Below the pieces are notes generated by a model, which worked only from the letters and a program-made list of their open reading frames with translations, searched no databases and was not told the origin of the DNA. Below are positions 7,559 through 56,832 of a stretch of DNA of 56,832 bases, in pieces. The stretch spans positions 1 through 56,832 of the forward strand of contig JAHDCW010000002.1 of NCBI GenBank assembly GCA_020629675.1, in the 5' to 3' direction. Positions within the stretch are counted from its first letter, which is position 1. The number at the start of each line of letters is the position of its first letter. The position numbers and the translations under genes are program-made. The stretch is from Minisyncoccota bacterium. GTDB taxonomy: Bacteria; Patescibacteriota; Minisyncoccia; Moranbacterales; GCA-2747515.

Positions 7559-7590
7559 AATCTGTCGACATTAATGTGTAATTAAAAAAA

Positions 7591-7995
7591 GTGCTGAAAT
7601 ATATCCTTATACCACTACTGGGCATTGGAGCATTTGTGGGTCTTTTTTATGTGATTGCAAATGGGCAGCAGTACGAGCAGCAGGTGCATAACGTTCACTT
7701 TGACCAATTTTATGAAGCTTTTGATATAGGAGAGGTGCAGGACAATAGTGAGGTATTTGGGTGTAAGCGTGATGTGATTATCAATATCAACGCAGAGCTT
7801 AAAACAGCCCTCGTTTTCTTTGATCCGCATAACTTTGCGACTGTTGAGTTTGAAGAAATTATACCCGTACCAGAGGGGCGTCAGTATCGGAGTTCTCGTG
7901 ATACCTTTACGATTGTGGAGGATGGGGAGAGTACGCTCATTGTAGAAGGTCGTCGCATCGCTGATGGGTGCGTGCGTCGTGGCGAAAGTTTCTAA
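7591..7995 (+). CDS. Hypothetical membrane-anchored or secreted protein
   Basis: GTG start, one N-terminal hydrophobic helix, and a 110-aa domain with 2 Cys. No family recognised. Confidence 0.45.
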   Translation: MLKYILIPLLGIGAFVGLFYVIANGQQYEQQVHNVHFDQFYEAFDIGEVQDNSEVFGCKRDVIININAELKTALVFFDPHNFATVEFEEIIPVPEGRQYRSSRDTFTIVEDGESTLIVEGRRIADGCVRRGESF

Positions 7996-10156: not shown

Positions 10157-10362
10157 TGTGTACGGCACTTTTGTTGCAGGTATCCGATTAAAAATACACA
10201 GGCAATCGTCGCTAAGATGAGTCCATTGAGGATGGTTGTGATGCTTAAGATTGGCGGTAAAAACACATTGGCAGAGATAAATGCAAGGTCAGCTGTAAGT
10301 AGCAATGCTAAAGCGTCATAAGATGCTTTATGGAGGGCTGTGTGCGTATCGTGAGAGAGCAT
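10153..10362 (-). CDS. Small two-TM hypothetical protein
   Basis: 69-aa ORF with two hydrophobic helices, 9 nt downstream of the 309-aa gene on the same strand. Support is only positional. Confidence 0.35.
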   Translation of the reverse strand: MLSHDTHTALHKASYDALALLLTADLAFISANVFLPPILSITTILNGLILATIACVFLIGYLQQKCRTH

Positions 10363-10371
10363 AGTGTTGGT

Positions 10372-11301
10372 TTAAGGGATGAGTGCTTGGCGGATTGCGG
10401 TCAAGCGTGAAGTAACATTTTGTCGAGAATAGGCTGGTTTGAGCGTGATGGTGATGCGCTCTAATTCGATAGAGCTAGCGTCGCTATGATCAAGTGAAAA
10501 GACATAATCCTTGCCACTAAATGATGTGATCGTGTTGATTGAGGTTGTGCATGAGTAGGTGTCTTGCCGGAAGGCTTTCTTTGTCAGAAGACATGAGTCG
10601 TTGGTTGTGCGACTGAGTGCTTCGACAGCTACGAGAGATCGAAGATCATCTGGTGTGATCTTTGTGAGTGTATTTGTGGAAGAGAGTTGGTAGACGGTGT
10701 TGTTGTTGTCGATTTCTACAAAACGTGTTCCTGGTGGGTGGACGGATTGAAGATTGAGGATGTGGCCGCGGGTATAGCGATTCCAGATACCACTATCAAC
10801 TACTTGTGAGTCGGCAAAATCATAGCCAAGCGCTTCAAATGTCATCACCGTATCAAATGGATGGCGTACGCCGCCAAGAGCTGTTAGTGCATGTCCTGAA
10901 GTGCCCATCATAAGGCTGCCTGGAGATAGGGGGAGATCAGAAGCATCTTTGATGATTGTCTCCTCATAGGGAGTGCTGAGGTAGGCATAATGGCCTTTTT
11001 GGATCGTAATTGACATACCAGAGAGGTCGATGTCAGAGCGTAGTGTGAGAGTGATCTCGTTCGTTGTGCGTCGTGAGGACCCATGAAAGACAGTTGCTGT
11101 ATCTGTAGTTGCAGGTTGGGCGAGGCGAAAGATCGGATCGATATTTTTGTAGCCATAATAAAGTGTTGCTGTCGGAAAAAGAATATGGTGGATAAATGCG
11201 AGAGCAAGAAAAACAGTGACTAAAACGAGTGCCCATCTAAGGCGAGAATATATTTTTCTTTGTTGTGATGTAAGGGTGAGCTTGGGTGTGATGTCCAACA
11301 T
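10372..11301 (-). CDS. Hypothetical N-terminally anchored extracytoplasmic protein
   Basis: Single TM (WALVLVTVFLALAFIHHILF) followed by a ~270-aa domain. It lies 4 nt downstream of the polytopic membrane gene. Confidence 0.6.
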   Translation of the reverse strand: MLDITPKLTLTSQQRKIYSRLRWALVLVTVFLALAFIHHILFPTATLYYGYKNIDPIFRLAQPATTDTATVFHGSSRRTTNEITLTLRSDIDLSGMSITIQKGHYAYLSTPYEETIIKDASDLPLSPGSLMMGTSGHALTALGGVRHPFDTVMTFEALGYDFADSQVVDSGIWNRYTRGHILNLQSVHPPGTRFVEIDNNNTVYQLSSTNTLTKITPDDLRSLVAVEALSRTTNDSCLLTKKAFRQDTYSCTTSINTITSFSGKDYVFSLDHSDASSIELERITITLKPAYSRQNVTSRLTAIRQALIP

Positions 11302-42545: not shown

Positions 42546-42577
42546 AGAGGCGCTCATCATGCGCCTCTTTTATTTTT
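42546..42577 (+). terminator. Rho-independent terminator
   Basis: 8-bp GC-rich stem AGAGGCGC/GCGCCTCT, a 7-nt loop, then TTTTATTTTT. Confidence 0.75.
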
Positions 42578-42607: not shown

Positions 42608-42635
42608 TTGACAAAATGAGTAAAAATGTTATAAT
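42608..42635 (+). promoter_or_regulatory. Near-consensus sigma70 promoter (TTGACA-16-TGtTATAAT)
   Basis: Exact TTGACA (42608-42613), a 16-nt spacer with extended -10 TG, and exact TATAAT (42630-42635). A GGAGG SD lies 4 nt before the ATG at 42662. Confidence 0.7.
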
Positions 42636-42661: not shown

Positions 42662-43402
42662 ATGTCAAATTGTGATCTAACAATTGTTATACCGACATTT
42701 AATGAAGCGCACAACGTGCGAAATCTTTATCATGCGCTCAATTCCACTCTTGAAATAGAGGAATCTCTGGAGTATTTATTTGTAGATGACAGTACAGATG
42801 AGTTGACGCGGGAGATCATCGAAGAGCTGGCGCAGGAGGATCCGCGCGTACGCTTTATTTTTCGTGAGACCAACTCTGGACTGGCAACTGCAATTGCAGA
42901 GGGGATGGAGGCAGCAAGAGGTGACTATGTTTGTTCTATGGATGCAGATTTACAGCATCCTCCACAGTATATCAACGACCTCTACCGCGCTGTTCGCTTT
43001 GACGGTGCTGATATTGCGGTGGGTTCACGCTATACGAACAATGGATCAGCGCAAGGTCTGACGACTTTTTATCGTCGCATCTCATCACATATTTGCCGTT
43101 ATGCGGCTTACGCCTTACTGCCATCTACCCGTAAGACGACAGATCCGGGGAGTGGTTTTTATATGACGACCAAAAAGGCTGTAGATGCCAAAAAGTTGGG
43201 AAGAATGTTCGGATATAAGATATTGATTGAGATTTTAGTGCGTAATCCTGAGTTAAAGGTAGCTGATGTAGGGTATACCTTTGTGGGGCGTCAATATGAC
43301 ATAAGTAAATCGACATTTCGGCAGGGCTTGCTTTATTTTAAGCATATTGTATTACTAGCCTTGAGTCAGCGTCGGTTGCTTGCTAAAAAAACAAATTTGT
43401 AG
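42662..43402 (+). CDS. GT2 polyprenyl/dolichyl-phosphate hexosyltransferase (Dpm1-like)
   Basis: Motifs IVIPTFNEAHN, FVDDSTD and MDADLQHPP (DxD). At 246 aa it is soluble or peripheral, the Dpm1/PpmA-like size. Confidence 0.82.
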   Translation: MSNCDLTIVIPTFNEAHNVRNLYHALNSTLEIEESLEYLFVDDSTDELTREIIEELAQEDPRVRFIFRETNSGLATAIAEGMEAARGDYVCSMDADLQHPPQYINDLYRAVRFDGADIAVGSRYTNNGSAQGLTTFYRRISSHICRYAAYALLPSTRKTTDPGSGFYMTTKKAVDAKKLGRMFGYKILIEILVRNPELKVADVGYTFVGRQYDISKSTFRQGLLYFKHIVLLALSQRRLLAKKTNL

Positions 43403-43467: not shown

Positions 43468-45102
43468 ATGAAGAATCTTTCATTAATTAGCATCTTGTTT
43501 GTACCGCTGTTTTTCGTGGTCAACTTTGCAGATGCAACAGATGTCTCTGTGGGGGGACAATTTCAAAATACAAGTCCTGACGAAGGAACGTCAGTCGTGT
43601 ATGAGTTAGATGTGCAAAACATTGGTCCAGATGAGTCGCGCATTGACTTGGATTTTACCGTGGGTAATCACTTAACCTACGCATCACATATTATCAACGG
43701 TGGGTGTGCGTCAGGTGGCTCAGGGGCATCTACGACAGCGAATGGATTTTCAGTCTCGCAAATCAATGCAGGACTTGGATGTTCATTTAAGGTACTTGTG
43801 ACATTTAATATCTCTGCAAATTCATGCAGTGAAAATACAAATGTAAGCGTCAGTGCTAACTCAACGGTAGATATCGCGCAGTGCTCTCTTGAACTTAACT
43901 GCACTAATAAATCTGGCCTTACCTGTCTCGTAGATGAGCTTAATGAGTTTGGTCAATGTACAGGAACGTTTTGTACAGCGACGGCAACCTCAGCATATGA
44001 TAGTTGTTATTTGCCAACACAAGGAGCGTGTAATGGTGACGCCCAGTGTCTTGAAGATCTCCAGGAAACATGTTACGACGAAGCGCTCGCAGCTGCTCAC
44101 GTGTGCTTGCAAGGTGCGACAATTCCGACAACACCAAGCGTTACAACTGCCACTGATACTGCATCCCTAACCATCAATGATTGTATTCCAATTTCTGTGT
44201 GTGGCGATGGTTTGCCTGGAGCGGGTGAACAATGTGACGATGGTAACAATGTAGACGGTGATGGTTGTAGTGCTAGTTGCCAAATTGAAGTGCCAGTTTG
44301 TGGTGACGGTAAAATAAATCAATCATCTGAGCAGTGCGATGATGGAAATACGGTGAGTGGTGATAAATGTAGTGCCACCTGTGAGATCGAGCAAACAACG
44401 CCAGCTCCAATCTGTGGTGATGGTCAGGTAAACCAGTCATCTGAACAATGCGATGATGGTAATACAGTTAATGACGACAAATGTAGCAATACATGTCAGA
44501 ACGTTGTTGAGCCAACGCCAATGTGTGGCGACGGAACAGTTGATGCAGGAGAGACTTGTGATGATGGTAATACAGTAAATGGAGATGGTTGTAGTGCAAC
44601 ATGTGCAGTAGAGAATGATCAGGTTGATCCCTCTGGCGAACTAGAACAGGCAGAGACATGTTCAGTTGATGACTACGCTGATATTGAGGGTGAGGTGTGG
44701 ATCGATGAGAACAATAACGGTAAGCGAGACAAGGGTGAGCCTGGGATTGAAGACGTCACAGTTTATCTTACAGACCTTGATGGAAACGAGATTGACTCAG
44801 ATGAGACCAATGACGACGGTGAATTTGAATTTAAAAACTATGCACCAGGAGAATATTATGTTGACCTCCAGGAAAGTGATAAGGATCTTGATGGCCTTAA
44901 ATTAAAAGTTGAGGAGGATACAACGCTCAATGGAAAGGATCGTTTTGAGCTGGAGTGTGATGAAGATTACGACGATGCAACATTTGGGTATGTAAGCGAG
45001 GAAAAGAAAGTACACACAGAGCGTCCTCGAACACTTGCAAAAACCGGTGGACCACAGACTGCGTGGGAGCATGTCATGGCACTGATTGCTGCGATTTTCT
45101 AA
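43468..45102 (+). CDS. Secreted Cys-rich repeat surface protein (DUF11-like + 4x DUF4215-type Cys repeats + SdrD-B/CnaB-like domain, LAKTG tail)
   Basis: Signal peptide, four CGDG-x6-E-x-CDDGN-x4-D-x-CS-x-x-C repeats, GEVWIDENNNGKRDKGEPGIEDVTVYL...GEFEFKNYAPGEYYV, and a C-terminal LAKTGG followed by a short hydrophobic end. Confidence 0.8.
   Translation: MKNLSLISILFVPLFFVVNFADATDVSVGGQFQNTSPDEGTSVVYELDVQNIGPDESRIDLDFTVGNHLTYASHIINGGCASGGSGASTTANGFSVSQINAGLGCSFKVLVTFNISANSCSENTNVSVSANSTVDIAQCSLELNCTNKSGLTCLVDELNEFGQCTGTFCTATATSAYDSCYLPTQGACNGDAQCLEDLQETCYDEALAAAHVCLQGATIPTTPSVTTATDTASLTINDCIPISVCGDGLPGAGEQCDDGNNVDGDGCSASCQIEVPVCGDGKINQSSEQCDDGNTVSGDKCSATCEIEQTTPAPICGDGQVNQSSEQCDDGNTVNDDKCSNTCQNVVEPTPMCGDGTVDAGETCDDGNTVNGDGCSATCAVENDQVDPSGELEQAETCSVDDYADIEGEVWIDENNNGKRDKGEPGIEDVTVYLTDLDGNEIDSDETNDDGEFEFKNYAPGEYYVDLQESDKDLDGLKLKVEEDTTLNGKDRFELECDEDYDDATFGYVSEEKKVHTERPRTLAKTGGPQTAWEHVMALIAAIF
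44197..44615 (+). repeat. Four tandem ~100-120-nt coding repeats (Cys-rich repeat units)
   Basis: The strings GATGATGGTAATACAGT and TCATCTGA(G/A)CA(G/A)TGCGATGATGG recur. At the protein level there are 4 repeat units. Confidence 0.8.
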
Positions 45103-45201: not shown

Positions 45202-47376
45202 ATGGTGAAAAAGACAGACAATAGAAGAGGTATTAGGATAATTGCAGTGTTGCTGTTGACTGGTGCGCTCACCGTAGCGGCATGTTGGTTTGGGTATGCG
45301 TACCTTACAGGCTCTAGTATTCCATCGGAGGATTTTACTGAGCAGGTTGTGGGAGCCAATCCAAGTGATGTGCTAGGTGAAAAAGATGATCCTGCAACAA
45401 CTGACAATACCCCCAAAGAAATAGATGTTATGGACGTATCAACACTTAAGCAGGAAACTGCTTTCACAGAAGGCGTTTACAGTGCACACGCAGGGCCTAT
45501 TGCTACCAACCAATGGTTTACCTCAAACTACTTTCGGCAAGGTTCGGAGAACTTCTTTGGATTTCCGCTAGCGTATAATGTCAGTGAAAACGCTTTTCGT
45601 ATTTCTTACCCGCGGATAAATGTACAGCCCCAAATTATTTTTGGTTCCTTTTCACAAGATGTAGCGCTTGTTTTTGATCGTCCAATAGTGTCTCGCGTAA
45701 AAGCGTACAGTGAGCTTTCTGTTACTTTGGAGCTCAGCAGCGTAGGGACAGAGGAATTGCTTGCAACGATTTATCTGACGCGTGGCTCACTTTATGTAAA
45801 TATATCTTTGACAGAAGCTGGAAGTGGAGTGCTGTGGGAGACACCGGGGACAATCGAACTAACAGGAACAGAGCAAAAGAAGTACCTTACACGCAACAAT
45901 GACACGAAGTTTGCGATTTATGCGCTCGATAATCTTATACTGACCGGCTCTGAAGATCGCAATCAGATTGCTGTTGGAAGTGATTTTGCTGTCGATGGAG
46001 AGCGCTTAGTGGTAGGTGTGTTACCTGAAGGTATGACGTGGGCACAACTTGATCGTTACGCTGCTCAATTTAATATGTCATCAGATTTTACGCTCACATC
46101 AACAGAGGCATCGCGTGTAGATTTTGACAAGGAGACGTACTGGGCTATCTTGCCACATCACCAACAGTCAATTCGTGGCGCTCTCTGCAACCAAGACATG
46201 CGTTTCCAGACAATTCGTGGGGCGATGATTGTCTGTGAGGGAAAGAGTTTTGATTTTATATCAGAGGCCACTGTCCCAGCGGAGCAGATTAACGTAGGCA
46301 CATTCACTGAGGAAGAAAAAGAGGTCCTGCGTCGCCTTGTGCGCGAGGAGACAGAGGCTTTTGCGGATTTTGCAGCTCCTGACACTTATTTTAGAGGAAA
46401 AGAGATCTTGCGTCTGGCGTATCTCTATGATCTGGCAGTTCAGCTAACGATGGATGCCACCTCGGACTCGCTCAAGAGCACTTTGCGACGTGAGTTTGCA
46501 AACTGGCGCACTAATACGATCGTTGCGCCGGATGGACTAAATGGGGAGCAGTACTTTGTTTACGATAATATTATTCGTGGTGTCGTGGGTCACAAGACGA
46601 GCTTTGGCTCTGAGCGCTTTAATGATCACCACTTTCATTATGGCTATTTTGTACATGCTGCAGCGATCATAGCGCGTCATGATGAGAGTTTTGTTGCAGA
46701 TAATGGGGATTTTGTGAATACGCTGGTGAGCGATTATGCAAATATCAACGCATCTAACCAAGACTTCTCATTGGTACGAAGCTTTGATTTTTATGAGGGG
46801 CATAGCTGGGCAGCTGGTGAGTCACTTTTTGGGGATGGAAATAATCAGGAGTCAACATCAGAAGCAATTCAGGCTTATTATGCGGCGTACCTTTGGGCAC
46901 GGACAATTGGTGCAGATGCATTAGCTAATAAAAACTTATGGCTCTTTAATCAAGAAACAGCAAGTGCGCGCATGTACTGGCTTTTGTCAGGTGAAGGTGC
47001 GCCAACGTACGAAGGTTATGAGCCAAGTGCTGTTTCGCTCCTATGGGGTGGTAAGGCTGAGTGGGCAACGTGGTTTAGTGGGGAGCCGGAGGCAAAGCTT
47101 GGGATTCAGCTGATTCCATTTACGCCGGGGAGTACATACCTCAACAAGATTAGTAATGAAAACATCAAACGTCATTTAGCGGAAACAGCTTTTCCAGAGC
47201 AGAAGCTATTCTATGACTTACTTCTCATGTACTACGCAGTAGCTGACCCACAGGATGCAGAGCGCATATTTAGAACCCAGGAAGCAGCAGGTTTATTAGA
47301 GCTGGATGGTGGAAACTCAAAAAGCTACCTATTTGCATGGATTCTTTTTCAAAAGTATGTAGAGAAAAATGATTAA
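45202..47376 (+). CDS. Membrane-anchored GH81 endo-beta-1,3-glucanase
   Basis: N-terminal TM. GH81 signature blocks FNDHHFHYGYFVHAAA, YEGHSWAAG and GNNQESTSEAIQAYY (E-x3-E catalytic pair). Confidence 0.82.
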   Translation: MVKKTDNRRGIRIIAVLLLTGALTVAACWFGYAYLTGSSIPSEDFTEQVVGANPSDVLGEKDDPATTDNTPKEIDVMDVSTLKQETAFTEGVYSAHAGPIATNQWFTSNYFRQGSENFFGFPLAYNVSENAFRISYPRINVQPQIIFGSFSQDVALVFDRPIVSRVKAYSELSVTLELSSVGTEELLATIYLTRGSLYVNISLTEAGSGVLWETPGTIELTGTEQKKYLTRNNDTKFAIYALDNLILTGSEDRNQIAVGSDFAVDGERLVVGVLPEGMTWAQLDRYAAQFNMSSDFTLTSTEASRVDFDKETYWAILPHHQQSIRGALCNQDMRFQTIRGAMIVCEGKSFDFISEATVPAEQINVGTFTEEEKEVLRRLVREETEAFADFAAPDTYFRGKEILRLAYLYDLAVQLTMDATSDSLKSTLRREFANWRTNTIVAPDGLNGEQYFVYDNIIRGVVGHKTSFGSERFNDHHFHYGYFVHAAAIIARHDESFVADNGDFVNTLVSDYANINASNQDFSLVRSFDFYEGHSWAAGESLFGDGNNQESTSEAIQAYYAAYLWARTIGADALANKNLWLFNQETASARMYWLLSGEGAPTYEGYEPSAVSLLWGGKAEWATWFSGEPEAKLGIQLIPFTPGSTYLNKISNENIKRHLAETAFPEQKLFYDLLLMYYAVADPQDAERIFRTQEAAGLLELDGGNSKSYLFAWILFQKYVEKND

Positions 47377-50062
47377 GCGAAGGTTGCAAAATAAGGGGGA
47401 GCGTGCAGAGATGGCTGGCATTAAGAGACCGCGACGTGCTGGTGTTTTTCGTGCTGTGCATGAACGTGGTGATGTGCTACCTAAGCACAACCAGGCGCTC
47501 AAAAAGAGAGCGATGCCAACGCAAGCGCAAAAGTCTAGCGGGTCGGGTGATCATTTGATCGATGTGATGGATGCAAGCTACATGCAGGAAATCTACCAAG
47601 AAGTAAAGGGAGAGGCACGTCGTCAAGCTGTGGAACAGCAAGTGAGTCACATGCAGCAGACTGCAGGAAGACCTTCTGACACAGGGGGGCAGCAGACTGG
47701 GGTGCAGCAGAGAAATTCGACTGTGCAACCGACGCCTATTGCAAATCCATACAAGCGCACACACGCGGCAAATCCTGTACGGTCATTTGCATTTGATACG
47801 GTTGCAGCACCGGGGCGTGCGCAGAGTCACGCATCGTCAGCACCTTCGCCGCTCGAACGTGCTCAAGCCTTTTTTGTCGGTGATGCTGCAGCTGATCTAC
47901 ATAAAAATGAGGGTGAGACGGAGTATGACTTTTCTGACAAGGATAATCGTGAAGTGCGCCAACCGTTTGTGATACGGATGATTGCAGAAATGATGTTTCT
48001 ATTCTTGATTTATACAACGGGTTGGTTTTTGATTGGCTATTATCTCGAAGGAGAATTTCTCTCAACAAACTACCAAGACTGGATCTACCACGCATGGCGC
48101 ATAGATACGCTACAAGAACATCAGATGATTACATCTTGGGATCACCAATGGACCAGCGGAATTAACCATTGGCGCTCCTATCAGTACATTCAGCATGTCC
48201 TCGTCCTAGGCGTTGTACAGCTCACAGGATTATCGATCACCAAAGCGATGATCTTGTTGACTGTCGTGATTTATATCGGTATTCGTTTTCTGATATATGG
48301 TGTGCTGCGTAGCTTTGGCGTAGGTGCCTTGGCAAGTTTTATAGCGGTACTTTTTTCCTTTACATACGTCCAGCAGTGGATCGCAATTAGTGATTTTTCT
48401 ATTTTTATCGCTTTCATCATCGTACCGTTTTACATACTGCTATGGAAAAACATCTACGAGCGCCATGCGCTACGTAAAGATCTAGATGGGAATGCGCTTG
48501 TGGTGGAGCATAGGAAAAGGCGTCGTGCAGAGTATTTCTTAGCACTGCTGACAGGTGCGACGTGGATTTTGCATCCGATTATTGCAAACGTCTTTGCTGG
48601 GATTTTCTTTTATACGATTGGATTTCGTTCGCTTAAGATCTCACTTACATATGCACTAAGTATTTTGGCGGTGTATATCATAGGGGCGCTCGCTTTCTTT
48701 TTGCCATATTTTTCGGCGGGATACCATTTTGCTAATCCTGTGTTTACGACAACCGGATTTGTGACGGATACGATTGCTGGAGAGTATTTTGGCCTTAGCT
48801 TCTTTTTTTGGGGGTTTACAGGGTTCGCGATTGTGGTGAGTATGCTGATGCCGAGTGTGGCACCTGCGTGGGCTAGACGGCTCCTAGGTTACTCCATTTT
48901 GTATTTCATTTTGATTTACTTTGCACAAAATGGTTATGTGCCTAAAATTATTACACAGCTTCAGATTTCTCGTGTCATACCAGTGTTGGCGCTTTTGATT
49001 ATCTTTGCGTTTGCTGGCATCCTAGATGGATTTCTCAAAAGCTTCAAGATGGCGCGACCGTTTATTGTGATTCTTGCGATATTTGCAGCTATTTCAATTA
49101 TTGAGTCAGTGAAAATTGGGACAGCTTTTACGAGTCAACCACGAACATCTCTGGATGACCCTGTGTCTCTCTATTTTAATGGTAAGGAGGACCCGAAGGG
49201 GAGTATCTATGTGCGTGATGTCTCATCTGCGAGTTACTTTTCTGAGGGGGATGTACGCTTTATAAATTCATACAATGAGCACTTGCTACCAAATCCTTTA
49301 TCTGTACGTTTTGGATTCTTTATGCGATCTGAAATTGCATATACGGGTGTGTCACGCACACATGAAAAGCTTATTCGGGATTATTCTACGGTTATGGGGC
49401 TTGAATATATTGTTTTGCCGCAATCGTCACCGCTCATTCGTTCATTGACCCAAAAAGATGAAGGGCAAGAGCGGGCGGATTTTGAATTTGTCGAAACTTT
49501 AAGTTCGTTTAATGGGGTATACACGATCATTCGTCGCACTGCGGAAATACATAATGCATATCTGATCAATCAAGATGATCGTGTATTGACGTGGGATCAG
49601 ACATTGGAAAATCCTACAATTGAAGCTAATTCGTATCAGCAGTGGGATCGCAAGGTGAGTATTCTGGCAGAAAAAATGCGTAATGGTGAGATGATACCGC
49701 TGGATACATCATTTACGCGTCAGGATCAGATCGCCATCGATCTGACTGATCAAGATCTTAGCGGAAAGGCTCTTTTTGTGGCACAAAGCTATGATCCATA
49801 CTGGTCTATAGTAGGTCGTCGTGATGTTGTTAAACCTTCAGAAATTAGAATGATTCATGTAGAGCCCGCTGCGCTTTCAGATGAATTGGTAACTCGTCAA
49901 GATGGGCGTGTACGTATTGTGCTTGAGAATAACTGGCCATGGTGGCACTGGCCGCTCCAGTTCTTTGCTCTCGGTGCGATTGGACTCATTTTTGTGGCGG
50001 GACTCTTCAGCTTGCGAGGGCAGCGTGTTGGAAGTATAAGTCGTAAACGTAAGCAGCGATAG
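47369..50062 (+). CDS. Large polytopic membrane protein, YfhO-like GT-C architecture (putative glycosyltransferase)
   Basis: ~195-aa basic/Gln-rich N-terminal region, ~12 TM helices, an early loop YQDWIYHAWRID, a ~330-aa extracytoplasmic domain and a final TM. It overlaps the GH81 gene by 8 nt. Confidence 0.75.
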   Translation: MIKRRLQNKGERAEMAGIKRPRRAGVFRAVHERGDVLPKHNQALKKRAMPTQAQKSSGSGDHLIDVMDASYMQEIYQEVKGEARRQAVEQQVSHMQQTAGRPSDTGGQQTGVQQRNSTVQPTPIANPYKRTHAANPVRSFAFDTVAAPGRAQSHASSAPSPLERAQAFFVGDAAADLHKNEGETEYDFSDKDNREVRQPFVIRMIAEMMFLFLIYTTGWFLIGYYLEGEFLSTNYQDWIYHAWRIDTLQEHQMITSWDHQWTSGINHWRSYQYIQHVLVLGVVQLTGLSITKAMILLTVVIYIGIRFLIYGVLRSFGVGALASFIAVLFSFTYVQQWIAISDFSIFIAFIIVPFYILLWKNIYERHALRKDLDGNALVVEHRKRRRAEYFLALLTGATWILHPIIANVFAGIFFYTIGFRSLKISLTYALSILAVYIIGALAFFLPYFSAGYHFANPVFTTTGFVTDTIAGEYFGLSFFFWGFTGFAIVVSMLMPSVAPAWARRLLGYSILYFILIYFAQNGYVPKIITQLQISRVIPVLALLIIFAFAGILDGFLKSFKMARPFIVILAIFAAISIIESVKIGTAFTSQPRTSLDDPVSLYFNGKEDPKGSIYVRDVSSASYFSEGDVRFINSYNEHLLPNPLSVRFGFFMRSEIAYTGVSRTHEKLIRDYSTVMGLEYIVLPQSSPLIRSLTQKDEGQERADFEFVETLSSFNGVYTIIRRTAEIHNAYLINQDDRVLTWDQTLENPTIEANSYQQWDRKVSILAEKMRNGEMIPLDTSFTRQDQIAIDLTDQDLSGKALFVAQSYDPYWSIVGRRDVVKPSEIRMIHVEPAALSDELVTRQDGRVRIVLENNWPWWHWPLQFFALGAIGLIFVAGLFSLRGQRVGSISRKRKQR

Positions 50063-50063
50063 T

Positions 50064-51548
50064 ATGAAAGCAGGAAAAATTTTCGCAAAAAAGATACCAG
50101 CTGTTACATTTCTCTTCTTGGCAGCATCTCCACTCGTTGTGATTTGGTACGCAGCGTATATTTTTAATGTTAACAATGCTGACAATCTCTTTTTGTATAG
50201 CATTCAGATTATCGCAGACTCAATTGCGATGATGGTGCTCTTGGGTCTGTGGTTGACTGTATTGATTGACACTCTGATAGAGCGTCATCACCGTACTTTT
50301 GAGCGTGTAAATTTCTCGCTTCTTAGTGATGATAATGTTCCTACAGTGGATGTATTTATCACTGTATATGGTGAGCCACTTAGCGTGATCGAAAAAACAG
50401 CACGTGCAGCGCGGGACATGCGTGTACTGCATAATACTTATGTATTGGATGATGGAAACAGTTTTGAGGTGCGCTATTTTTGTGAGCAAAACGGCATCAA
50501 GTATATCGCTCGAGAAAAAAATGATCATGCGAAGGCCGGTAATGTAAACAATGCACTTTCAGAGACAGATGCAGAATTTTTTGCCATCATAGATGCGGAT
50601 CACGTACCAGAGCCAGAGTTTCTTGAGGTGCTTTTGCCCTACATGGAAGACAAAAATTTGGCTATGGTGCAGTCACCACAACATTACCGCAACATCGAAA
50701 ACTTTATTGCCTCCGGAACAGCGCAGGCACAGGAGGTATTTTACCGCTACGTATGTCCTGCTAAAAATATCTCAAACTCTGCTTTTTCTGTGGGAACAAA
50801 TGTGCTGTTTCGTCGTAGTGCGATTGACCAGATTGGCGGTATAGCACTTAACAACTCTGAGGATATTTGGACATCGTTCTTGCTTCATAAAAATGGTTGG
50901 CGTACGATCTTTGTTAACCAGGTATTGGCAATTGGTGTGGCGCCAGATACGATTATTTCTTTTTTCAAGCAACAGCGTCGCTGGGCTAAGGGTGGTCTTG
51001 ATATACTTATCAATGAAAGTCCGATGCGCAATGAGGGTCTTGAGCTTGATCAGCGCATCCAATATTTTATCTCAAGTACATTTTTCTTGGTAGGTATTCC
51101 GATTCTTGTTTATATTGTGATGCCGATTATCTATTTGCTTTTTGATGAGAAGCCGCTTCTTATTACTAATGGAACGGTCTGGCTGATCCATTACCTGCCG
51201 TATTTCTTTTTGTATTTTGCGATTACGTTCTTGTTGCTCCGACAGAAACTTCGTATCTCTACGATGGCGACAGCGCTCGCTAACTTTTACCCGTACCTCC
51301 TTGGTCTTTTCTCAGTGATTTTTGATACAGAGCAAGAGTGGGTAGCGACGACATCAAAGAAGAATAGTGTTGATCCGATTATGAAGTGGATTTGGCCGCA
51401 TGTGTTCTTGTTGGTATTGTCAATATTGAGTTTGATTGTGGGGTGGTACAATCCAACAGAATTCTGGGCATCGTTTTTTAATTCTATGTGGGTGGGTCTT
51501 AATATCTTTTTGTTGAGTACGTTCTTGACCCGTGCACGTTATAAGTAG
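50064..51548 (+). CDS. Processive GT2 beta-glycan synthase (BcsA/CrdS/BgsA-like), no PilZ domain
   Basis: Two N-terminal TM helices. D,D,D,QxxRW signature: VLDDGN, IIDADHVP, SEDIWTS (TED-like) and QQRRWAKG. Also QSPQHY and 4-5 C-terminal TM helices. It starts 1 nt after the upstream stop. Confidence 0.82.
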   Translation: MKAGKIFAKKIPAVTFLFLAASPLVVIWYAAYIFNVNNADNLFLYSIQIIADSIAMMVLLGLWLTVLIDTLIERHHRTFERVNFSLLSDDNVPTVDVFITVYGEPLSVIEKTARAARDMRVLHNTYVLDDGNSFEVRYFCEQNGIKYIAREKNDHAKAGNVNNALSETDAEFFAIIDADHVPEPEFLEVLLPYMEDKNLAMVQSPQHYRNIENFIASGTAQAQEVFYRYVCPAKNISNSAFSVGTNVLFRRSAIDQIGGIALNNSEDIWTSFLLHKNGWRTIFVNQVLAIGVAPDTIISFFKQQRRWAKGGLDILINESPMRNEGLELDQRIQYFISSTFFLVGIPILVYIVMPIIYLLFDEKPLLITNGTVWLIHYLPYFFLYFAITFLLLRQKLRISTMATALANFYPYLLGLFSVIFDTEQEWVATTSKKNSVDPIMKWIWPHVFLLVLSILSLIVGWYNPTEFWASFFNSMWVGLNIFLLSTFLTRARYK

Positions 51549-51566
51549 ATCTAGTAATATAAGTAT

Positions 51567-52370
51567 ATGAGTCAAAAAAATTTTTCATTTCGTGAGTGGC
51601 TATTTAACACTTTTATGGTGGTGTTTGTTTTTCTGATTGCGCTTATGATTTCATCACAGGCATTGACGCGTAAGGTGAACTCTTTTCAGAGCATCACGAG
51701 CCCAGTGTTTTTTGAGGTTGACAAAAAAGACCTCGTTATCAATGCGCAGGTAGAGGGGCGTGTCAAAACGATCAATGTAACCTCGGGACAAAGTGTAAAA
51801 GCGGGGGAGTTGATCGTAGAACTCGACTCAACAGCGTTTGAGAGGCGTGTGAGCCTACTCGAAGAGGTGGCTGATCAAAACCTCTCAGCACGGACGGAGT
51901 TGAGTGTTCTTCGAGAGGATGCAGATAGCTTTAAAATTTATGCGCCACAGGATGGTGTGATTGATGATATTAATATCTCAGAAGGGTCCTATGTGAACCG
52001 TGAGGCGCGCGTGCTGACGATGTTCTCTGACACGGATACAAGGCTTACGAGTTTTGTGACACCGGATCAGTATAGTGAGATCCAGAATAGCGGCAGTGTA
52101 AATGTTTACAGTGATCGTCTGGAGCAGACCTTTAAGGCAAAACTTGATGGTGTGCGACAGGCAACACGTGGTGCAGGCAATCAAGGCTTTAATCAAAATA
52201 CGGGTGATAGTTTTTTTGAGCTTATCTTTCGCTTTGAAAATGCTGAAGATGGAGCGATCTTTATCGAGAAAGAATCACTTCAGTTGATCAACCCAGCCGA
52301 AGAAGAGTCTATTACGCGACCAAGTGATCGTCTTGCGCGAATTTGGAACGCACTAATCCTTGGACGCTAA
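51567..52370 (+). CDS. HlyD-type membrane-fusion/adaptor protein (single TM + barrel-sandwich hybrid)
   Basis: N-terminal TM. Lipoyl-like halves INAQVEGRVKTINVTSGQSVKAGELIVELD and IYAPQDGVIDDINISEGSYVNREARVLTMF are joined by a very short alpha-hairpin. Confidence 0.7.
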   Translation: MSQKNFSFREWLFNTFMVVFVFLIALMISSQALTRKVNSFQSITSPVFFEVDKKDLVINAQVEGRVKTINVTSGQSVKAGELIVELDSTAFERRVSLLEEVADQNLSARTELSVLREDADSFKIYAPQDGVIDDINISEGSYVNREARVLTMFSDTDTRLTSFVTPDQYSEIQNSGSVNVYSDRLEQTFKAKLDGVRQATRGAGNQGFNQNTGDSFFELIFRFENAEDGAIFIEKESLQLINPAEEESITRPSDRLARIWNALILGR

Positions 52371-52380
52371 CACATAGCTT

Positions 52381-52827
52381 ATGCATCAATTTAGAGATTT
52401 CGTACATCGTATCTATGACGTCATCTTTCCGTTTGCGCTGATGCAGCGTTATAAGCGGGTCTTGATGTATCTTTTTTTTGGATCGATGGCGGCTATTGTA
52501 GATGTTGGTGTGTATATAATCCTATTTAATTTCTTCGGTTTTGCAGCGCTTTATGCAAATTCTGTATCTCAGGCGCTTGCGATCCTTTGTGGTTTTTTCC
52601 TAAATGGGTTTATTACCTTTAAGGTAAGTGATAAATATAAACGGCGACTCTTGCTTTTTATTCTCGTAAGTCTAACAGGTTACCTGGTGACTTCTGTGAT
52701 TCTATATCTCTTTCATGATATGCTAAGATTCGATGGTAATCTCGTGAAGATACTATCGCTGCCGCTTATTTTTGTGCTACAGTATACATTAAATTCATTG
52801 ATTACATTTCGTTCATCATCTCGTTAA
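52381..52827 (+). CDS. GtrA-family membrane protein
   Basis: 148 aa with 4 TM helices and GtrA-like motifs (FGSMAAIVDVGVYIILF; NGFITFKV; NSLITF). Confidence 0.8.
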   Translation: MHQFRDFVHRIYDVIFPFALMQRYKRVLMYLFFGSMAAIVDVGVYIILFNFFGFAALYANSVSQALAILCGFFLNGFITFKVSDKYKRRLLLFILVSLTGYLVTSVILYLFHDMLRFDGNLVKILSLPLIFVLQYTLNSLITFRSSSR

Positions 52828-52836
52828 TTATTTCTT

Positions 52837-54159
52837 ATGTCGCAAGATACTAAAAAAATTGCTGTCATCGGTGCTGGTTTTACAGGACTGACTGCAGCAT
52901 ACCGACTGGCTCTCCAGGGTTACCACGTAACTGTTCTTGAAAAAGAAGCTGTTTTAGGAGGTTTGGTAGCTGGTTTTGAGATGCATAATCAACCGATTGA
53001 AAAGGTGTATCACTTTCTTTATATGACAGACGCAGATGCATTGGGGTTGCTTGAGGACCTTGGTGTGCGGGATAAGCTAACTTTTTATGATAGCTCTGTC
53101 TCAACGTACTATGATGGGACGCTCTTCCCGTTTATGACACCGAAAGATCTATTAACCTTTACACCTCTCTCATTACTCGACAGAATCCGCACAGGTGCAG
53201 TAGCGTTTTATCTTCAGCGCTGCAAAAATTGGAAACCGCTGACAAAGATCACAGCTTATGACTGGATGAAGAAATATGCAGGCAAGCACGCTACACGCAT
53301 CATCTGGGAGCCCCTCCTCAAGGGTAAATTTGGTAAGTTTTACGACAAGGTTACAATGTCATGGTTGTGGTCGCGTATTCATGTGCGCGCAAACTCTAAG
53401 GAGTCTGGTTCGACAGGGGAGAAGCTTGGATATATCGAGGGTAGCTTTGCCATTGTCATTGAGGCGCTGGAGCGCGCGATCACAGAGCGTGGCGGTCGTA
53501 TCATCACGTCTTGTAATATCGAGGCGATTGATGGTGCGGAGGGTGAGAAGTCAAAAATTACTTATAATGGCACACACGAAGAATTTGATGCGATTTTGGC
53601 GACAGTCCCAACGCATGTTTTTGATACATTGACAGCGCATAACCCGCTGGTAAAAAAGGCTCCACAGCGTGATCATATTGATTATATTGGTGCGATCGTT
53701 GGTATTTTTAGTAGCACGCAGGAGATCTCAGAATATTACTGGCACAACATTAACGATGACAGTATTCCATTTTTGGTATTCTTGTCTGAGACAGCCCTGA
53801 CTGGTACTGATTTATTTGAAGGTCGTCATGTTTACTATATAGGAGTGTATGTTGAACATGAGCATCCCTATTTTGATATGCCGGATAAGGCAATTTTGGA
53901 TGAGTGGTTTGGTGGGCTTAAAAAAATGTTTCCAGACTTTGATGTGGAGCAGATCATGGAAAAACATCTTTTCAAGTTCCGCAACGCGCAACATATAGTT
54001 GATATCGGTTATGAAGATAAGATGCCACCATATAAAAGTGTTTTACCTGGTGTTTATCTCGCAAACTTTTCACAGATTTTCCCTGATGATCGCGGCATCA
54101 ACTATGCTGTACAAGAAGGTAATAAGCTTGCAGCTATGATTGATAGGGATCTTGCGTAA
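52837..54159 (+). CDS. FAD/NAD(P)-binding oxidoreductase (amine-oxidase / phytoene-desaturase / PPOX-like fold)
   Basis: The N-terminal dinucleotide-binding motif KIAVIGAGFTGLTAAYRLALQGYHVTVLEKEAVLGGL and a C-terminal YLANFSQIFPDDRGINYAV are typical of this superfamily. Confidence 0.78.
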   Translation: MSQDTKKIAVIGAGFTGLTAAYRLALQGYHVTVLEKEAVLGGLVAGFEMHNQPIEKVYHFLYMTDADALGLLEDLGVRDKLTFYDSSVSTYYDGTLFPFMTPKDLLTFTPLSLLDRIRTGAVAFYLQRCKNWKPLTKITAYDWMKKYAGKHATRIIWEPLLKGKFGKFYDKVTMSWLWSRIHVRANSKESGSTGEKLGYIEGSFAIVIEALERAITERGGRIITSCNIEAIDGAEGEKSKITYNGTHEEFDAILATVPTHVFDTLTAHNPLVKKAPQRDHIDYIGAIVGIFSSTQEISEYYWHNINDDSIPFLVFLSETALTGTDLFEGRHVYYIGVYVEHEHPYFDMPDKAILDEWFGGLKKMFPDFDVEQIMEKHLFKFRNAQHIVDIGYEDKMPPYKSVLPGVYLANFSQIFPDDRGINYAVQEGNKLAAMIDRDLA

Positions 54160-54179: not shown

Positions 54180-56066
54180 TTACTCCTTTGCATAAGGATT
54201 ATCGCCTGCGATGTTAGATTCTTTGGCACTGTAGATATGGAGTGCACTGCGCTCACTTTGTGAGCGCTTTATTGTGTGGAGAGGAATGTTAACTTTTGTG
54301 TAAAGCTGCTCAAAATTATAGACGCCGATGCGTGGAGCTGCTCTACGTTTGAGCTCACTCTTACTTTCTCGGATAACTTGATGAGCTCGATCAGGTGTTG
54401 TGACAAAATACTGAAAGACAAGCTTGTCTTCTAGGATGCGATCGTGTTTAACCGTTGTCGTGCAGCTACCTACAAAAGCACGGCATACGCCTGATTTGTC
54501 GGACCAAATACTTAGATTCTCAGCATAGGGAAGACTGTTAAGATACGCGGCTGCATGATAGCTACCATCACCCATGTTTTTGTAGTCAAAGAGGTGGTTG
54601 GTAGGTAAGAATGAGTTGTGATAACTAAGATAAAATGGTGTACTGGTATAAAGACTCGCAATGAGGGTAATGGTAAGACCGCCATAAAGAAATCTCTTGG
54701 CTACTACTTGTGATGGGAGTAGTAGTCGCTGCCCTAGAATAAAGGTGCCACATGCGCATACAAAAAATACGAGAGGGAATAAGCCTATCTGGTAACGCAG
54801 CGTGGGCGCGACACCGCCTATTGCAGAGCCAAGGTAGTACACTACGATAAATAGAAGTGATCCTGTGATAAATAGTTGCTGCTTCTTGGTTGCGATCAAT
54901 GGTGTTACAAGGCATGTCACGAGAAAAAGTGCGAGCATGAGCGGGTGCAAGCCAAAGGTAATGTTATAAAAACCTGAGAGAAATGTTGTCAAAAAATCAG
55001 TGTTGCTCAGTGCACTTTTCGGTGATTGAAGAGCGAGTTGAAAGTTGTGGAGCGGGTTATTGAGGATGGTACTCAAAAGCACATAAAGAGTAGCCATAAA
55101 AACTGTGATTGCGCTAAAAATCGTAATCACCCTGTGGTACGGACGCAGGTAAAAGAGTATCGTGCTAAATAAAGGTCTTCTACTTAGAAAGGTGTCAGTC
55201 ACGAAAAAAAACATGAGTCCGACGTAAATGCCCCAGATAGCTATAAAAGCTTCTGAGAAGAGCGTTCCCCTAAGGATATCGATTGGTCTAATCCATGTAC
55301 TCGGTAACATGAGGATATATACTGCTAATGCAATAAAGGTGATACTCATATAAACGATGATATGTCGCTTGAGTTGACTTTGGATGAGGGTGATATCTTT
55401 CTTACGGTCATATATCACAATTAAGGCGCTAAGTAACGGCATCATTACGAAAATAAGATTTGCAATATATTTTGTCAGAAGTCCTAGCCCTAGGATGGTA
55501 CCGGCATAAATTACAGTGGTACGCGACGGAAACAAGAGTGCGCGCCATATAAGAAAAAAACTTAATGGTAAGAGAATCCATAAAAGCGCATCAGGATTAA
55601 TAATACGTGCGATGCCGAGTAGGTGCGGGGATAATGCAATCATGAGAACTGATGCGAGTGCAATTTCTTGGTTAGTGAGCCGGCGGACGACAAAAAAGAG
55701 GAGTAAAAGCAAAATCGCACCAGCAGCTAAGATGGGTAGACGCATAAGTGCCGTGAGATGTTCATGTTCCTCAGGTGTGATCGACTCTTGGATCGTGCTA
55801 GGGTAAGCGTGAGCGAGGCGAGAGGGTGTGCCGAGGATGGCAATTGTGATACCTGGCTTGTCATTAATGCGTGTGCCAAGGAGATCGCCACTTAAGAAAG
55901 AGGCGCTGTATGATTCGATACGATCAAAAATCCATAAAGGCTCATCAACCATTGCTTGTTTGCCGATATCTCGTGCACCGATTACAAAAAAACAAAAACA
56001 CAGCAAAAAAGCAAGTGCTGTATAAAAAGATGAATAATGCTCCTGTGAGCGAGAAAAAATTTGCAT
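54180..56066 (-). CDS. GT-C glycosyltransferase, ArnT/PMT (GT39/GT83)-like
   Basis: First periplasmic loop MVDEPLWIFDR...NDKPG (DE motif), more than 12 TM helices and a ~130-aa C-terminal soluble domain. The ATG at 56066 is preferred. Confidence 0.75.
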   Translation of the reverse strand: MQIFSRSQEHYSSFYTALAFLLCFCFFVIGARDIGKQAMVDEPLWIFDRIESYSASFLSGDLLGTRINDKPGITIAILGTPSRLAHAYPSTIQESITPEEHEHLTALMRLPILAAGAILLLLLFFVVRRLTNQEIALASVLMIALSPHLLGIARIINPDALLWILLPLSFFLIWRALLFPSRTTVIYAGTILGLGLLTKYIANLIFVMMPLLSALIVIYDRKKDITLIQSQLKRHIIVYMSITFIALAVYILMLPSTWIRPIDILRGTLFSEAFIAIWGIYVGLMFFFVTDTFLSRRPLFSTILFYLRPYHRVITIFSAITVFMATLYVLLSTILNNPLHNFQLALQSPKSALSNTDFLTTFLSGFYNITFGLHPLMLALFLVTCLVTPLIATKKQQLFITGSLLFIVVYYLGSAIGGVAPTLRYQIGLFPLVFFVCACGTFILGQRLLLPSQVVAKRFLYGGLTITLIASLYTSTPFYLSYHNSFLPTNHLFDYKNMGDGSYHAAAYLNSLPYAENLSIWSDKSGVCRAFVGSCTTTVKHDRILEDKLVFQYFVTTPDRAHQVIRESKSELKRRAAPRIGVYNFEQLYTKVNIPLHTIKRSQSERSALHIYSAKESNIAGDNPYAKE

Positions 56067-56122
56067 GAAAGTAACATTTACTATATCTCTATTGTACCTG
56101 AAAAACATGTTAAAATAAAAGC

Positions 56123-56832
56123 ATGAATATTACCAAGGGATTATCGTGGATCCTCCTTTTGATTATTATTGTAATCGGCTTTGTTCTGCGTTTCACGGCG
56201 CTCGGTGAGACGACACTTGTCAGTGATGAGTTTTTAGATGTCAATGCGACATATGGGTATTCCCAGACAGGCGCATGGCAGGCCTGGGACTGGAATCAAG
56301 AGGCGCCGAGTGTACGGCAAAATCAGGCCAGTGATGAGCGTGCGTGGCTCTATCGTATTCAGGTGTCATGGTTATATGAGTTTTTGCCACCAACGGTAGA
56401 AAATATCCGCCTCATAAGTGTTTTATGGGGTGTGGTAACGATTGTGGTCATATATGGAGTCTCACTTTCTTTTTTTTGTAGTCGTGTAATTGCTCTGATG
56501 GCTGCATTTTTATGGGCTGTAAGTATCCCTGCGATTGAGGTTAATCGTACGATTAGGATGTACAGCATGTTTGCACCCGTGTTTCTGCTCTTCATATGGT
56601 CGTTTTACAGTCTTATGGAGCGTGGACGACGTCACGCCGATGCGCTTTGGCGAGGTTTTTTTGATCTGAATTGGTGGTTTTTTGTGCCTACGCTTTTACT
56701 TGGGCTGCTCTCACTTCATTTACATCTTCTCACTCTTAATATCGCTATTGCATTTCTCTTTTATTGTATCTTTAGAAGTATTCAGACAAGCGATTGGCGA
56801 CCGTGGGCTTTTGGGCGTTGGTCGTATTACTT
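56123..56832 (+). CDS. GT-C glycosyltransferase, ArnT/PMT-like (3' partial, runs off the window)
   Basis: Not in the supplied ORF track. My translation from the ATG at 56123 is MNITKGLSWILLLIIIVIGFVLRFTALGETTLVSDEFLDVNATYGY...DERAWLYRIQV..., open to the window end. TM pattern and DE-type first loop resemble ArnT/PMT_2 proteins. Confidence 0.65.
   Translation, partial: MNITKGLSWILLLIIIVIGFVLRFTALGETTLVSDEFLDVNATYGYSQTGAWQAWDWNQEAPSVRQNQASDERAWLYRIQVSWLYEFLPPTVENIRLISVLWGVVTIVVIYGVSLSFFCSRVIALMAAFLWAVSIPAIEVNRTIRMYSMFAPVFLLFIWSFYSLMERGRRHADALWRGFFDLNWWFFVPTLLLGLLSLHLHLLTLNIAIAFLFYCIFRSIQTSDWRPWAFGRWSYY

Follow-up and report, generated by a model that had tools for sequence, protein, structure and literature searches.

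The 56,832-nt stretch of DNA analyzed here (the window: contig JAHDCW010000002.1, positions 1–56,832 of the forward strand, assembly GCA_020629675.1 of a Minisyncoccota bacterium) carries at 50064–52370 a gene for a processive family 2 glycosyltransferase (GT2) and, directly behind it, a gene for a membrane fusion protein (MFP) of the HlyD/MexA type. We propose that the two proteins form the core of a cassette for synthase-dependent β-glucan secretion in one-membrane bacteria, and that the product is probably a curdlan-like β-1,3-glucan. The reading of the product draws chiefly on the linkage of the pair to a hydrolase of glycoside hydrolase family 81 (GH81). To our knowledge, polysaccharide synthases paired with an efflux-pump adaptor have so far been described in two-membrane bacteria alone, and there the adaptor is taken to extend to a duct in the outer membrane. 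Full-text searches of the literature found no work that connects bacteria of the candidate phyla radiation (CPR) with cellulose or glucan synthases, GH81 or HlyD, and no published description of the cassette. The window is contig 5 of a 958 kb assembly (45 contigs, 89% complete), and named relatives of its proteins and loci include Candidatus Moranbacteria/Moraniibacteriota. The genes of the cassette are as follows.

45202–47376, + strand: membrane-anchored GH81 endo-β-1,3-glucanase (Pfam, PDB match, motifs)
47369–50062, + strand: GT-C-fold glycosyltransferase, 897 aa, with a low-complexity cytoplasmic N-extension of ~195 aa and a C-terminal transmembrane anchor (AlphaFold2 and Foldseek)
50064–51548, + strand: BcsA-like processive GT2 glucan synthase without PilZ, 494 aa (Pfam, NCBIfam, structure alignment, multiple alignment)
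51567–52370, + strand: membrane-fusion (HlyD/MexA-type) adaptor, 267 aa, with a single transmembrane helix, a very short hairpin and no membrane-proximal domain (Pfam, AlphaFold2, Foldseek)

The synthase and its adaptor

The GT2 was matched by the Pfam families Glyco_trans_2_3, Glycos_transf_2 and Cellulose_synt, and the same search gave no PilZ match in the protein. The NCBIfam model CelA (TIGR03030) aligned with residues 27–487 over model positions 73–559 of 714 (1.1e-75). Among solved structures, residues 20–487 aligned with residues 72–568 of Rhodobacter sphaeroides BcsA (4hg6, 2e-47) and residues 92–485 with residues 272–683 of Escherichia coli BcsA (1e-52). The PilZ domain of BcsA spans residues 584–676 (PMC10374906); since the match ends before it, the GT2 stops where PilZ would begin. 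A multiple alignment showed that BcsA, BgsA and CrdS-like proteins extend ~130–200 residues beyond the point at which the GT2 and all its CPR relatives end, and that the GT2 and all its relatives in ultra-small bacteria finish at most ~30 residues past the last membrane helix. The description given in the first-pass annotation, a 494-aa synthase that ends right after its last transmembrane (TM) helices with no PilZ or other C-terminal domain, therefore held in Pfam, in the alignment to the BcsA structure and in the multiple alignment. With a score of 255 bits on TIGR03030, far under the curated cut-off of 699.1, a score of 208 against 992 on PRK11498, no PilZ, and an end after the last TM helix, the sequence does not belong to the models of the UDP-forming cellulose synthase CelA/BcsA.

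The catalytic motifs of the GT2 are intact (VLDDG, IIDADH, SEDIWTS and FKQQRRWAKG) and align with those of BcsA, BgsA and CrdS, so that the D, DxD, (T/S)ED and QxxRW of the GT-A domain of BcsA-type processive GT2 β-glucan synthases are all found. Hydrophobic segments at 16–34, 42–60, 341–359, 374–392 and 442–460 indicate TM helices before and after the GT domain, as a channel-forming synthase should have. The protein resembles BcsA rather than NodC (CelA 1e-75 versus NodC 7e-11), and its Chitin_synth_2 match lay under that family's cut-off; it is thus not like chitin or hyaluronan synthases, in support of the first-pass annotation.

The MFP gene begins after a spacing of 18 nt. Its product was matched by Biotin_lipoyl_2 (58–87), HlyD_3 (123–201) and HlyD_D23, all over their cut-offs. 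The AlphaFold2 model (pLDDT 78) has an N-terminal helix at 8–43 with a hydrophobic core at 12–30, so that only ~11 residues would be cytoplasmic. A lipoyl/barrel-sandwich domain follows, split by a hairpin of 13 + 17 residues (H89–101, H106–122), and then a β-barrel at 148–241; after the barrel the model closes with two short helices (local pLDDT low, 52–57), and there is no fourth, membrane-proximal, domain. A Foldseek search with the model returned MexA first (2.5e-11), then MacA, AcrA, EmrA, the Gram-positive Spr0693 and the hairpin-less BesA, with 69 PDB chains at E ≤ 0.001. These results bear out the reading of the 267-aa protein as an N-terminally anchored barrel-sandwich adaptor with a very short hairpin, and the lipoyl–hairpin–β-barrel order of membrane-fusion/periplasmic adaptor proteins is present. 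The transporter and outer-membrane factor with which such proteins work are missing: neither a transporter gene in the operon nor an OEP in the genome was found, and in every locus the neighbor is a GT2.

A search across genome contigs with an MFP profile found only two Moraniibacteriota relatives and generic lipoyl-domain matches. Two other MFPs are encoded in the window genome, one of 343 aa with an ABC ATPase and two FtsX-like permeases (C35:9871–14153) and one of 374 aa with a 1122-aa protein of RND size (C45:5954–10455). Ordinary pump adaptors thus exist in this cell, and the 267-aa protein is the odd one, tied to the synthase. As both other MFPs have transporters of their own and the cassette has none, the gene content indicates that the 267-aa MFP is not needed for a transporter.

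No match to TolC-type (OEP) or Omp85 proteins was found in the genome (89% complete), which carries three sortase genes. This gene content suggests a host with a single membrane, where the adaptor would have no outer-membrane duct to reach. The first-pass annotation had made the lack of an outer-membrane partner depend on a monoderm host, and as far as gene content shows, the host is one. MFPs of the same cluster type elsewhere in the phylum share 14–18% identity with that of the window; in four of the five from outside the order the hairpin is still shorter or absent, which fits the absence of an outer-membrane partner or duct. That the pairing is kept in cells without an outer membrane, with the hairpin nearly or wholly lost, implies that the adaptor has a duct-independent job at the synthase, and this bears on the roles of CrdA, BgsB, XcsB and Alg44.

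Linkage to GH81 and the nature of the product

The distribution of the cassette was surveyed across the order in 201 sampled species-level genomes; in wider surveys of 151 genomes of the class and 401 of the phylum, the surroundings of GT2 genes were fetched and the neighbors typed. Genes for the close GT2, for the MFP and GT-C families and for GH81 occurred in the same 11 of the 201 order genomes, always adjacent, and all 11 GH81 genes of the sample sit in the cassette. The 11 genomes span three families of the order, and the cassette is absent from the other three genomes of the genus to which the window belongs. This pattern marks the cassette as an accessory, all-or-none unit. We also assembled 15 loci from public assemblies and order genomes in which the GT2 is at least 53% identical to that of the window. 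The gene order GT-C, GT2, MFP was invariant in all 15, with GH81 flanking one side or the other. Wherever an MFP gene is present it lies directly downstream of the GT2 gene, whereas the GH81 gene varies in side and in strand. The synthase–adaptor pairing is therefore genuine, being conserved in every close-orthologue locus and by joint occurrence across the order. The idea of a minimal two-gene module, on the other hand, had to be given up, since the pair belongs to a packed operon in which GH81 and, in this order, GT-C always accompany it.

In two of the loci (L001 and L002; GCA_037201605.1 and GCA_037975565.1) the same cassette has its GT-C, GH81 and MFP frames in pieces, probably through frameshift or assembly errors and not through decay. 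One protein with 59% identity to the window GT2 bears the name 'Undibacterium sp.' at NCBI and probably comes from a mis-binned CPR contig.

Across the phylum, the GT2 loci fell into two types.

Type B: GT2 with a 213–300-aa MFP directly downstream, plus GH81, GT-C present or not (window, L001–L005, L008–L017, L019, L099–L102)
Type B exception: GH81 without a detectable MFP (L112)
Type A: GH8 (PF01270), GT2, a PMT_2-type GT-C and often a Dpm1-like GT2, without MFP (L020–L023, L103–L109)

GH8 is the family of the cellulase BcsZ. A short MFP lay directly downstream of the GT2 in 20 of the 21 GH81-linked loci and in none of the 11 GH8-linked loci, all 11 of which have a PMT_2-type GT-C. In the GT2 tree, type A sequences formed a single clade (support 100/100), and type B sequences formed one group apart from type A and from the proteobacterial references, with moderate support (82/87). 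The hydrolase family thus changes with the lineage of the synthase, which would be expected of hydrolases suited to the product of their own synthase. At L099 two HlyD-like genes surround the GT2, a 213-aa short form downstream (7349–7990) and a 581-aa long form upstream (9535–11280).

The hydrolase was matched by Glyco_hydro81C (PF17652; 5e-64, 217 bits) and by the N-domain family PF03639 (8e-9, 35.5 bits), both over cut-off, and, among solved bacterial GH81 enzymes, by PDB 6fop (1e-55) and BH0236 (5e-48). Both GH81 signature motifs, NDHHFHYGYF and NNQESTSEA, are there, which places the protein in GH81 by sequence; we take its catalytic residues to lie in these acidic motifs, as in the family. 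A single N-terminal TM segment (13–31) would anchor it. GH81 enzymes are endo-β-1,3-glucanases, and a member that is inseparable from the synthase makes a β-1,3-linked polymer the most likely product. The strongest argument is the GH81/GH8 dichotomy together with the restriction of the MFP to the GH81 type: it indicates that GH81 acts on the synthase's own product, which would then contain β-1,3 bonds. The type A cluster is a likely cellulose-type counterpart. Rhizobiaceae offer a parallel: their glucan systems whose products contain 1,3 bonds (BgsBA and crdASC-like) use HlyD-family partners, while in the E. coli locus examined bcsB adjoins bcsA.

Could the synthase instead make cellulose or a mixed-linkage (1,3;1,4) glucan, with GH81 remodeling only its 1,3 bonds or digesting glucans of a host or prey? 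The best family and structure matches of the GT2 are cellulose synthases, the best-studied GT2 and MFP pair, BgsBA of Sinorhizobium meliloti, makes a mixed-linkage glucan, as does a Gram-positive BcsA-like enzyme (PMC10374906), and linkage is not predictable from sequence (PMC6821405). Set against this, the separate GH8-linked GT2 clade of CPR bacteria is the natural cellulose candidate; GH81 is never found apart from the synthase in the 201 genomes, which argues for action on the synthase's own product; and the PDB matches of the hydrolase (BH0236; Rhizomucor, 4k35) include entries deposited as endo-β-1,3-glucanases. We consider this alternative unlikely. The GH81 linkage points to a β-1,3-glucan and not to the mixed-linkage glucan that the analogy with BgsBA would suggest.

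In its distribution the MFP is tied to GH81 no less tightly than to the GT2, and it might therefore serve GH81 or GT-C, for example as a scaffold holding the hydrolase at the exit, or a transporter encoded elsewhere. The fixed position of the MFP gene immediately behind the GT2, set against the variable place and strand of GH81, argues otherwise, as do three loci (L019, L101 and L102) in which the MFP is kept and GT-C is absent. The cassette, moreover, has no transporter, and the other MFPs of the genome have theirs. HlyD-family genes of Rhizobiaceae likewise adjoin the synthase gene; bgsB insertions abolish the polymer, and crdA insertions stop curdlan production, a polar effect on crdS not being excluded (PMC10819609). 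A role of the MFP away from the synthase is very improbable.

Several observations weigh against a β-1,3-glucan cassette built around the GT2 and MFP. The type of linkage is not readable from a GT2 sequence (PMC6821405). The SED and F-x-V-G-T motifs that the GT2 has in common with a CrdS-like protein are only suggestive of linkage. The gating-loop segment reads W-V-A-T-T-S-K in place of FxVTxK, with Thr and a Lys kept and the Lys one position off, so that gating may work differently. At the GH81-linked locus L112 no MFP was detected. Support for the type B group falls to 80/37 when more sequences are added. Conservation along the MFP is flat (0.59–0.76 over the structured parts, lower in the N-tail and one loop), with no outstanding interface. 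Finally, GGDEF genes in 9 of the 11 cassette genomes leave room for cyclic di-GMP (c-di-GMP) control through an unrecognized receptor. Prediction of the linkage from motifs was tried and rejected as unreliable (PMC6821405).

The following mechanism would fit the β-1,3-glucan reading. The GT2, by homology and with its motifs intact, would polymerize glucose from UDP-glucose at the cytoplasmic face and thread the chain through its own channel as BcsA does. Held by one helix beside the synthase, the MFP would set its lipoyl domain and β-barrel as a collar over the channel exit and serve as co-polymerase or guide the chain across the wall zone, without docking to an outer-membrane duct. Such a role is thought to belong to BcsB, CrdA, BgsB and Alg44. 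Outside the cell, the membrane-anchored GH81 may cut, trim or release the product. In this lineage, GT-C may add a sugar to the polymer or to its acceptor on the outer face; as donor it could use a polyprenyl-phosphate sugar that a Dpm1-like GT2 produces and a GtrA protein flips, both of them encoded nearby.

As a tentative extension, possible rather than probable, the short, duct-less MFP would be a linkage-specific co-polymerase: β-1,3 GT2s would need an MFP collar in any envelope, and β-1,4 enzymes would use BcsB or nothing. If the extension is true, outer-membrane bridging by CrdA and BgsB would be secondary. Apart from this extension, the strict GH81 link, as opposed to that of the GH8-linked sister type, offers a testable genetic marker for bacterial β-1,3-glucan synthesis outside Proteobacteria. 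A surface glucan in ultra-small, probably host-attached CPR bacteria could serve adhesion or protection.

Comparison with known synthase systems and control by c-di-GMP

The pairing had been called BgsBA-like. BgsB and BgsA of S. meliloti are both needed for a β-glucan that contains 1,3 bonds, and they share with the window pair the placing of a BcsA-like GT2 without PilZ beside an HlyD-family MFP. This part of the comparison stands; closer kinship does not. The MFP gene comes first in BgsBA and the GT2 gene first in the window. BgsB is 410 aa long, with ~150 more coiled-coil residues between its lipoyl halves, which the window MFP lacks; the profile of the Moranbacteria MFPs matched it only marginally (E 4e-5 in a search of five sequences). 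For BgsB, docking to TolC has been proposed, in a cell with two membranes, whereas the window genome has no OEP. BgsA carries at its C-terminus a ~170-aa region for c-di-GMP binding, missing in the window GT2; it belongs to another GT2 clade, and the examined BgsBA locus has no adjoining hydrolase or GT-C gene. By sequence, the likeness is architectural only.

A second comparison is with the curdlan system crdASC, for which a crdASC-like locus of Agrobacterium tumefaciens (L007) served as proxy. Here too the GT2 of a linear β-1,3-glucan, without PilZ, lies behind a gene matching HlyD_3 (24.3 bits for the CrdA-like protein, cut-off 22.2), and the CrdS-like GT2 and the window GT2 both carry SED and F-C-V-G-T where BcsA has TED and FFCGS. 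The differences are a CrdA-like protein of 484 aa, a two-membrane host, an operon without GH81, and a CrdS that has a ~150-aa C-terminal domain and falls in a different GT2 clade. No CrdC homologue was found in the window genome. Judged by these sequences, the cassette is not a crdASC system, and the two have in common only the general layout of an HlyD-family protein with a PilZ-less GT2. No function has been assigned to CrdA or CrdC (PMC10819609).

Two further systems were compared by description. The cyanobacterial XcsA–XcsB–XcsC system (type IV bcs) likewise unites a synthase, an HlyD-like adaptor and an endoglucanase in one operon (PMC12430437, PMC8892547), but XcsA has PilZ, the adaptor is proposed to join a TolC-like duct, and the product is cellulose. 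Alg8–Alg44 pairs a GT2 polymerase with a single-TM protein whose outer part is MexA/HlyD-like and which is a co-polymerase, not a pump adaptor (PMC8892547); it differs in that Alg44 senses c-di-GMP through an N-terminal PilZ, the polymer is polymannuronate and the host has two membranes. BcsA–BcsB–BcsZ shares the homologous catalytic and channel core of the GT2 and a dedicated endoglucanase in the operon, but the window cassette lacks PilZ and its hydrolase is GH81, not GH8. In E. coli, bcsB adjoins bcsA; no BcsB homologue was found in the window genome. What is new relative to the known pairs (BgsBA, crdASC, Xcs and Alg8/Alg44) is the one-membrane setting, the loss of the hairpin, the obligatory GH81, an apparently undescribed GT-C family, and a separate GT2 lineage shared with Actinobacteria.

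In three trees the window GT2 fell outside a well-supported proteobacterial clade of BcsA, BgsA, the CrdS-like protein and a pAt-encoded GT2. BgsA grouped with the CrdS-like and pAt GT2s at 98–100% support, apart from the CPR clade; in our trees BgsA and the CrdS-like protein were nearer to each other than to BcsA, as also published (PMC6821405). A search of 1.84 billion representative proteins placed actinobacterial proteins among the best full-length relatives of the window GT2, including those of Kineosporia sp. R_H_3 (WP_088316932.1; 41% identity, 1.6e-112) and Nakamurella multipartita (WP_015747126.1; 38% identity, 3.4e-92), neither of which has PilZ. The Kineosporia GT2 fell inside the type B group. 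That of Nakamurella was sister (100/100, 54% identity) to a CPR type B GT2 (L101:7964–9643) on a contig of 44% G+C. The GT2 tree suggests transfer between Actinobacteria and CPR bacteria; had the cassette moved in this way, culturable hosts for its study would be at hand. A GH81 gene on a Streptomyces plasmid does not adjoin a GT2. Cellulomonads are curdlan producers with two GT2s 35–39% identical to CrdS and with GH81, adjacency not being reported there (PMC3544764). For Gram-positive bacteria, the cassette is a candidate set of curdlan genes.

The first-pass annotation had further taken the module to be independent of c-di-GMP. In favor, neither the GT2 nor the MFP has room for a cytoplasmic receptor domain, as read from their sequences, and no match to GGDEF or PilZ was found in the window genome (89% complete) or in another cassette genome, G187. 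A GT2 without PilZ or another cytoplasmic receptor would either be constitutively active after its synthesis or be regulated through transcription or by partner proteins. The lack of GGDEF in an 89%-complete genome carries little weight. GGDEF genes occur in 94 of the 201 order genomes, among them the nine cassette genomes mentioned above and 2 of the 3 same-genus genomes, and PilZ genes in only 12 of the 201, all in two genera, and in none of the 11 cassette genomes. The c-di-GMP receptors of the order must therefore be largely unrecognized, and we rejected a genome-wide lack of c-di-GMP signaling as proof of independence. BgsA itself is activated by c-di-GMP (PMC13438883), which it binds without a PilZ motif, so that likeness to BgsBA gives no argument for independence.

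Control might accordingly act through a receptor that its sequence does not betray: a site on the MFP, the N-extension of GT-C or a separate protein. The frequency of GGDEF genes, the rarity of PilZ and the example of BgsA speak for it. The GT2, however, has no cytoplasmic domain past its last TM helix, and the MFP has only its few cytoplasmic residues; the two cassette carriers in which neither GGDEF nor PilZ was found also count against such control, and no homologue of the C-terminal regions of BgsA and CrdS was found in the window genome. We hold c-di-GMP control of this kind to be improbable, and independence of the synthase from c-di-GMP to be plausible.

The rest of the operon and neighboring genes

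The cassette appears to lie in a longer transcription unit in which GH81, GT-C, GT2, MFP, a GtrA-family gene and a flavin adenine dinucleotide (FAD) oxidoreductase gene are tightly packed on the + strand. The GT-C gene overlaps the GH81 gene by 8 nt, the GT2 ATG lies 1 nt past the GT-C stop codon (TAG-T-ATG), the GtrA gene begins 10 nt past the MFP gene, and the FAD oxidoreductase gene 9 nt past GtrA. These overlaps and short gaps suggest translational coupling. The remaining features are as follows.

42608–42635, + strand: consensus sigma-70-type promoter, TTGACA-16-TATAAT with a TG extension (12 of 12 consensus positions; a pattern match only), possible start of the unit
42662–43402, + strand: Dpm1/GtrB-like GT2, candidate polyprenyl-phosphate-sugar synthase, accessory (PF00535, 1.9e-33)
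52381–52827, + strand: GtrA-family small membrane protein, candidate lipid-linked-sugar flippase, accessory (PF04138, 8.6e-21)
52837–54159, + strand: FAD oxidoreductase of the amine-oxidase/protoporphyrinogen-oxidase fold, accessory (Amino_oxidase, 5.5e-25; PRK07233)
54249–54267, + strand: terminator-like hairpin past the last gene, 8 pairs, 6 of them G-C, then a T run (a pattern match only)

The 897-aa protein had no Pfam or NCBIfam match, and none of the 21 members of its family matched Pfam. The AlphaFold2 model of residues 196–897 (pLDDT 86, pTM 0.88) was compared by Foldseek and retrieved AftA (1.7e-6), STT3, PglB, AglB, ArnT, ALG9 and Pmt4, with E-values from 1.7e-6 to 6e-3 for AftA, STT3, PglB, AglB and ArnT. 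An Asp in the first outer loop (YxDWIYH), characteristic of GT-C enzymes, is invariant in the family. On the evidence of the model, the protein is a GT-C glycosyltransferase of an undescribed family. Membership in YfhO was rejected, as no Pfam match appeared at E ≤ 1 among the 21 members; the GT-C fold alone is supported. The N-extension (47369–47953) is rich in K/R/Q/A/P and is missing from most orthologues, which have ~680–700 aa. In orthologues from another family of the order, a GT2 domain is fused at the position of the extension, and its best matches are polyprenyl-phosphate-sugar synthases (ArnC, PpgS, AglJ and Dol-P-hexose transferase). Such a fusion fits a GtrA/GtrB/GT-C-type decoration on the outer face of the membrane.

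The NCBIfam matches of the Dpm1-like GT2 were all under cut-off and mixed, with PgfS best, PgaC next, and ArnC, PpgS and AglJ included; several loci have genes of this kind close to the cassette. GtrA and the FAD oxidoreductase adjoin the cassette in seven loci including the window and travel together. The FAD oxidoreductase exceeded the cut-off of PRK07233 (1e-131), and its PDB matches were weak (best 1sez, 9e-10). Between the Dpm1-like GT2 and the cassette, directly upstream of the latter, a gene at 43468–45102 encodes a surface protein of 544 aa that has Cys-rich repeats (DUF4215/SdrD-B) and ends in a sortase-like LAKTG tail; by their position, both genes may share the cassette transcript. 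A terminator-like hairpin at 42546–42568 precedes the promoter at 42608–42635, and Rfam and tRNA scans of the window gave nothing relevant. Past the operon, a divergent gene at 54180–56108 (− strand) matches PMT_2/PMT (GT-C), and a membrane-rich frame at 56123–56830 (+ strand) runs off the end of the window. The genome region around the cassette is dense in genes for outer-face glycosylation.

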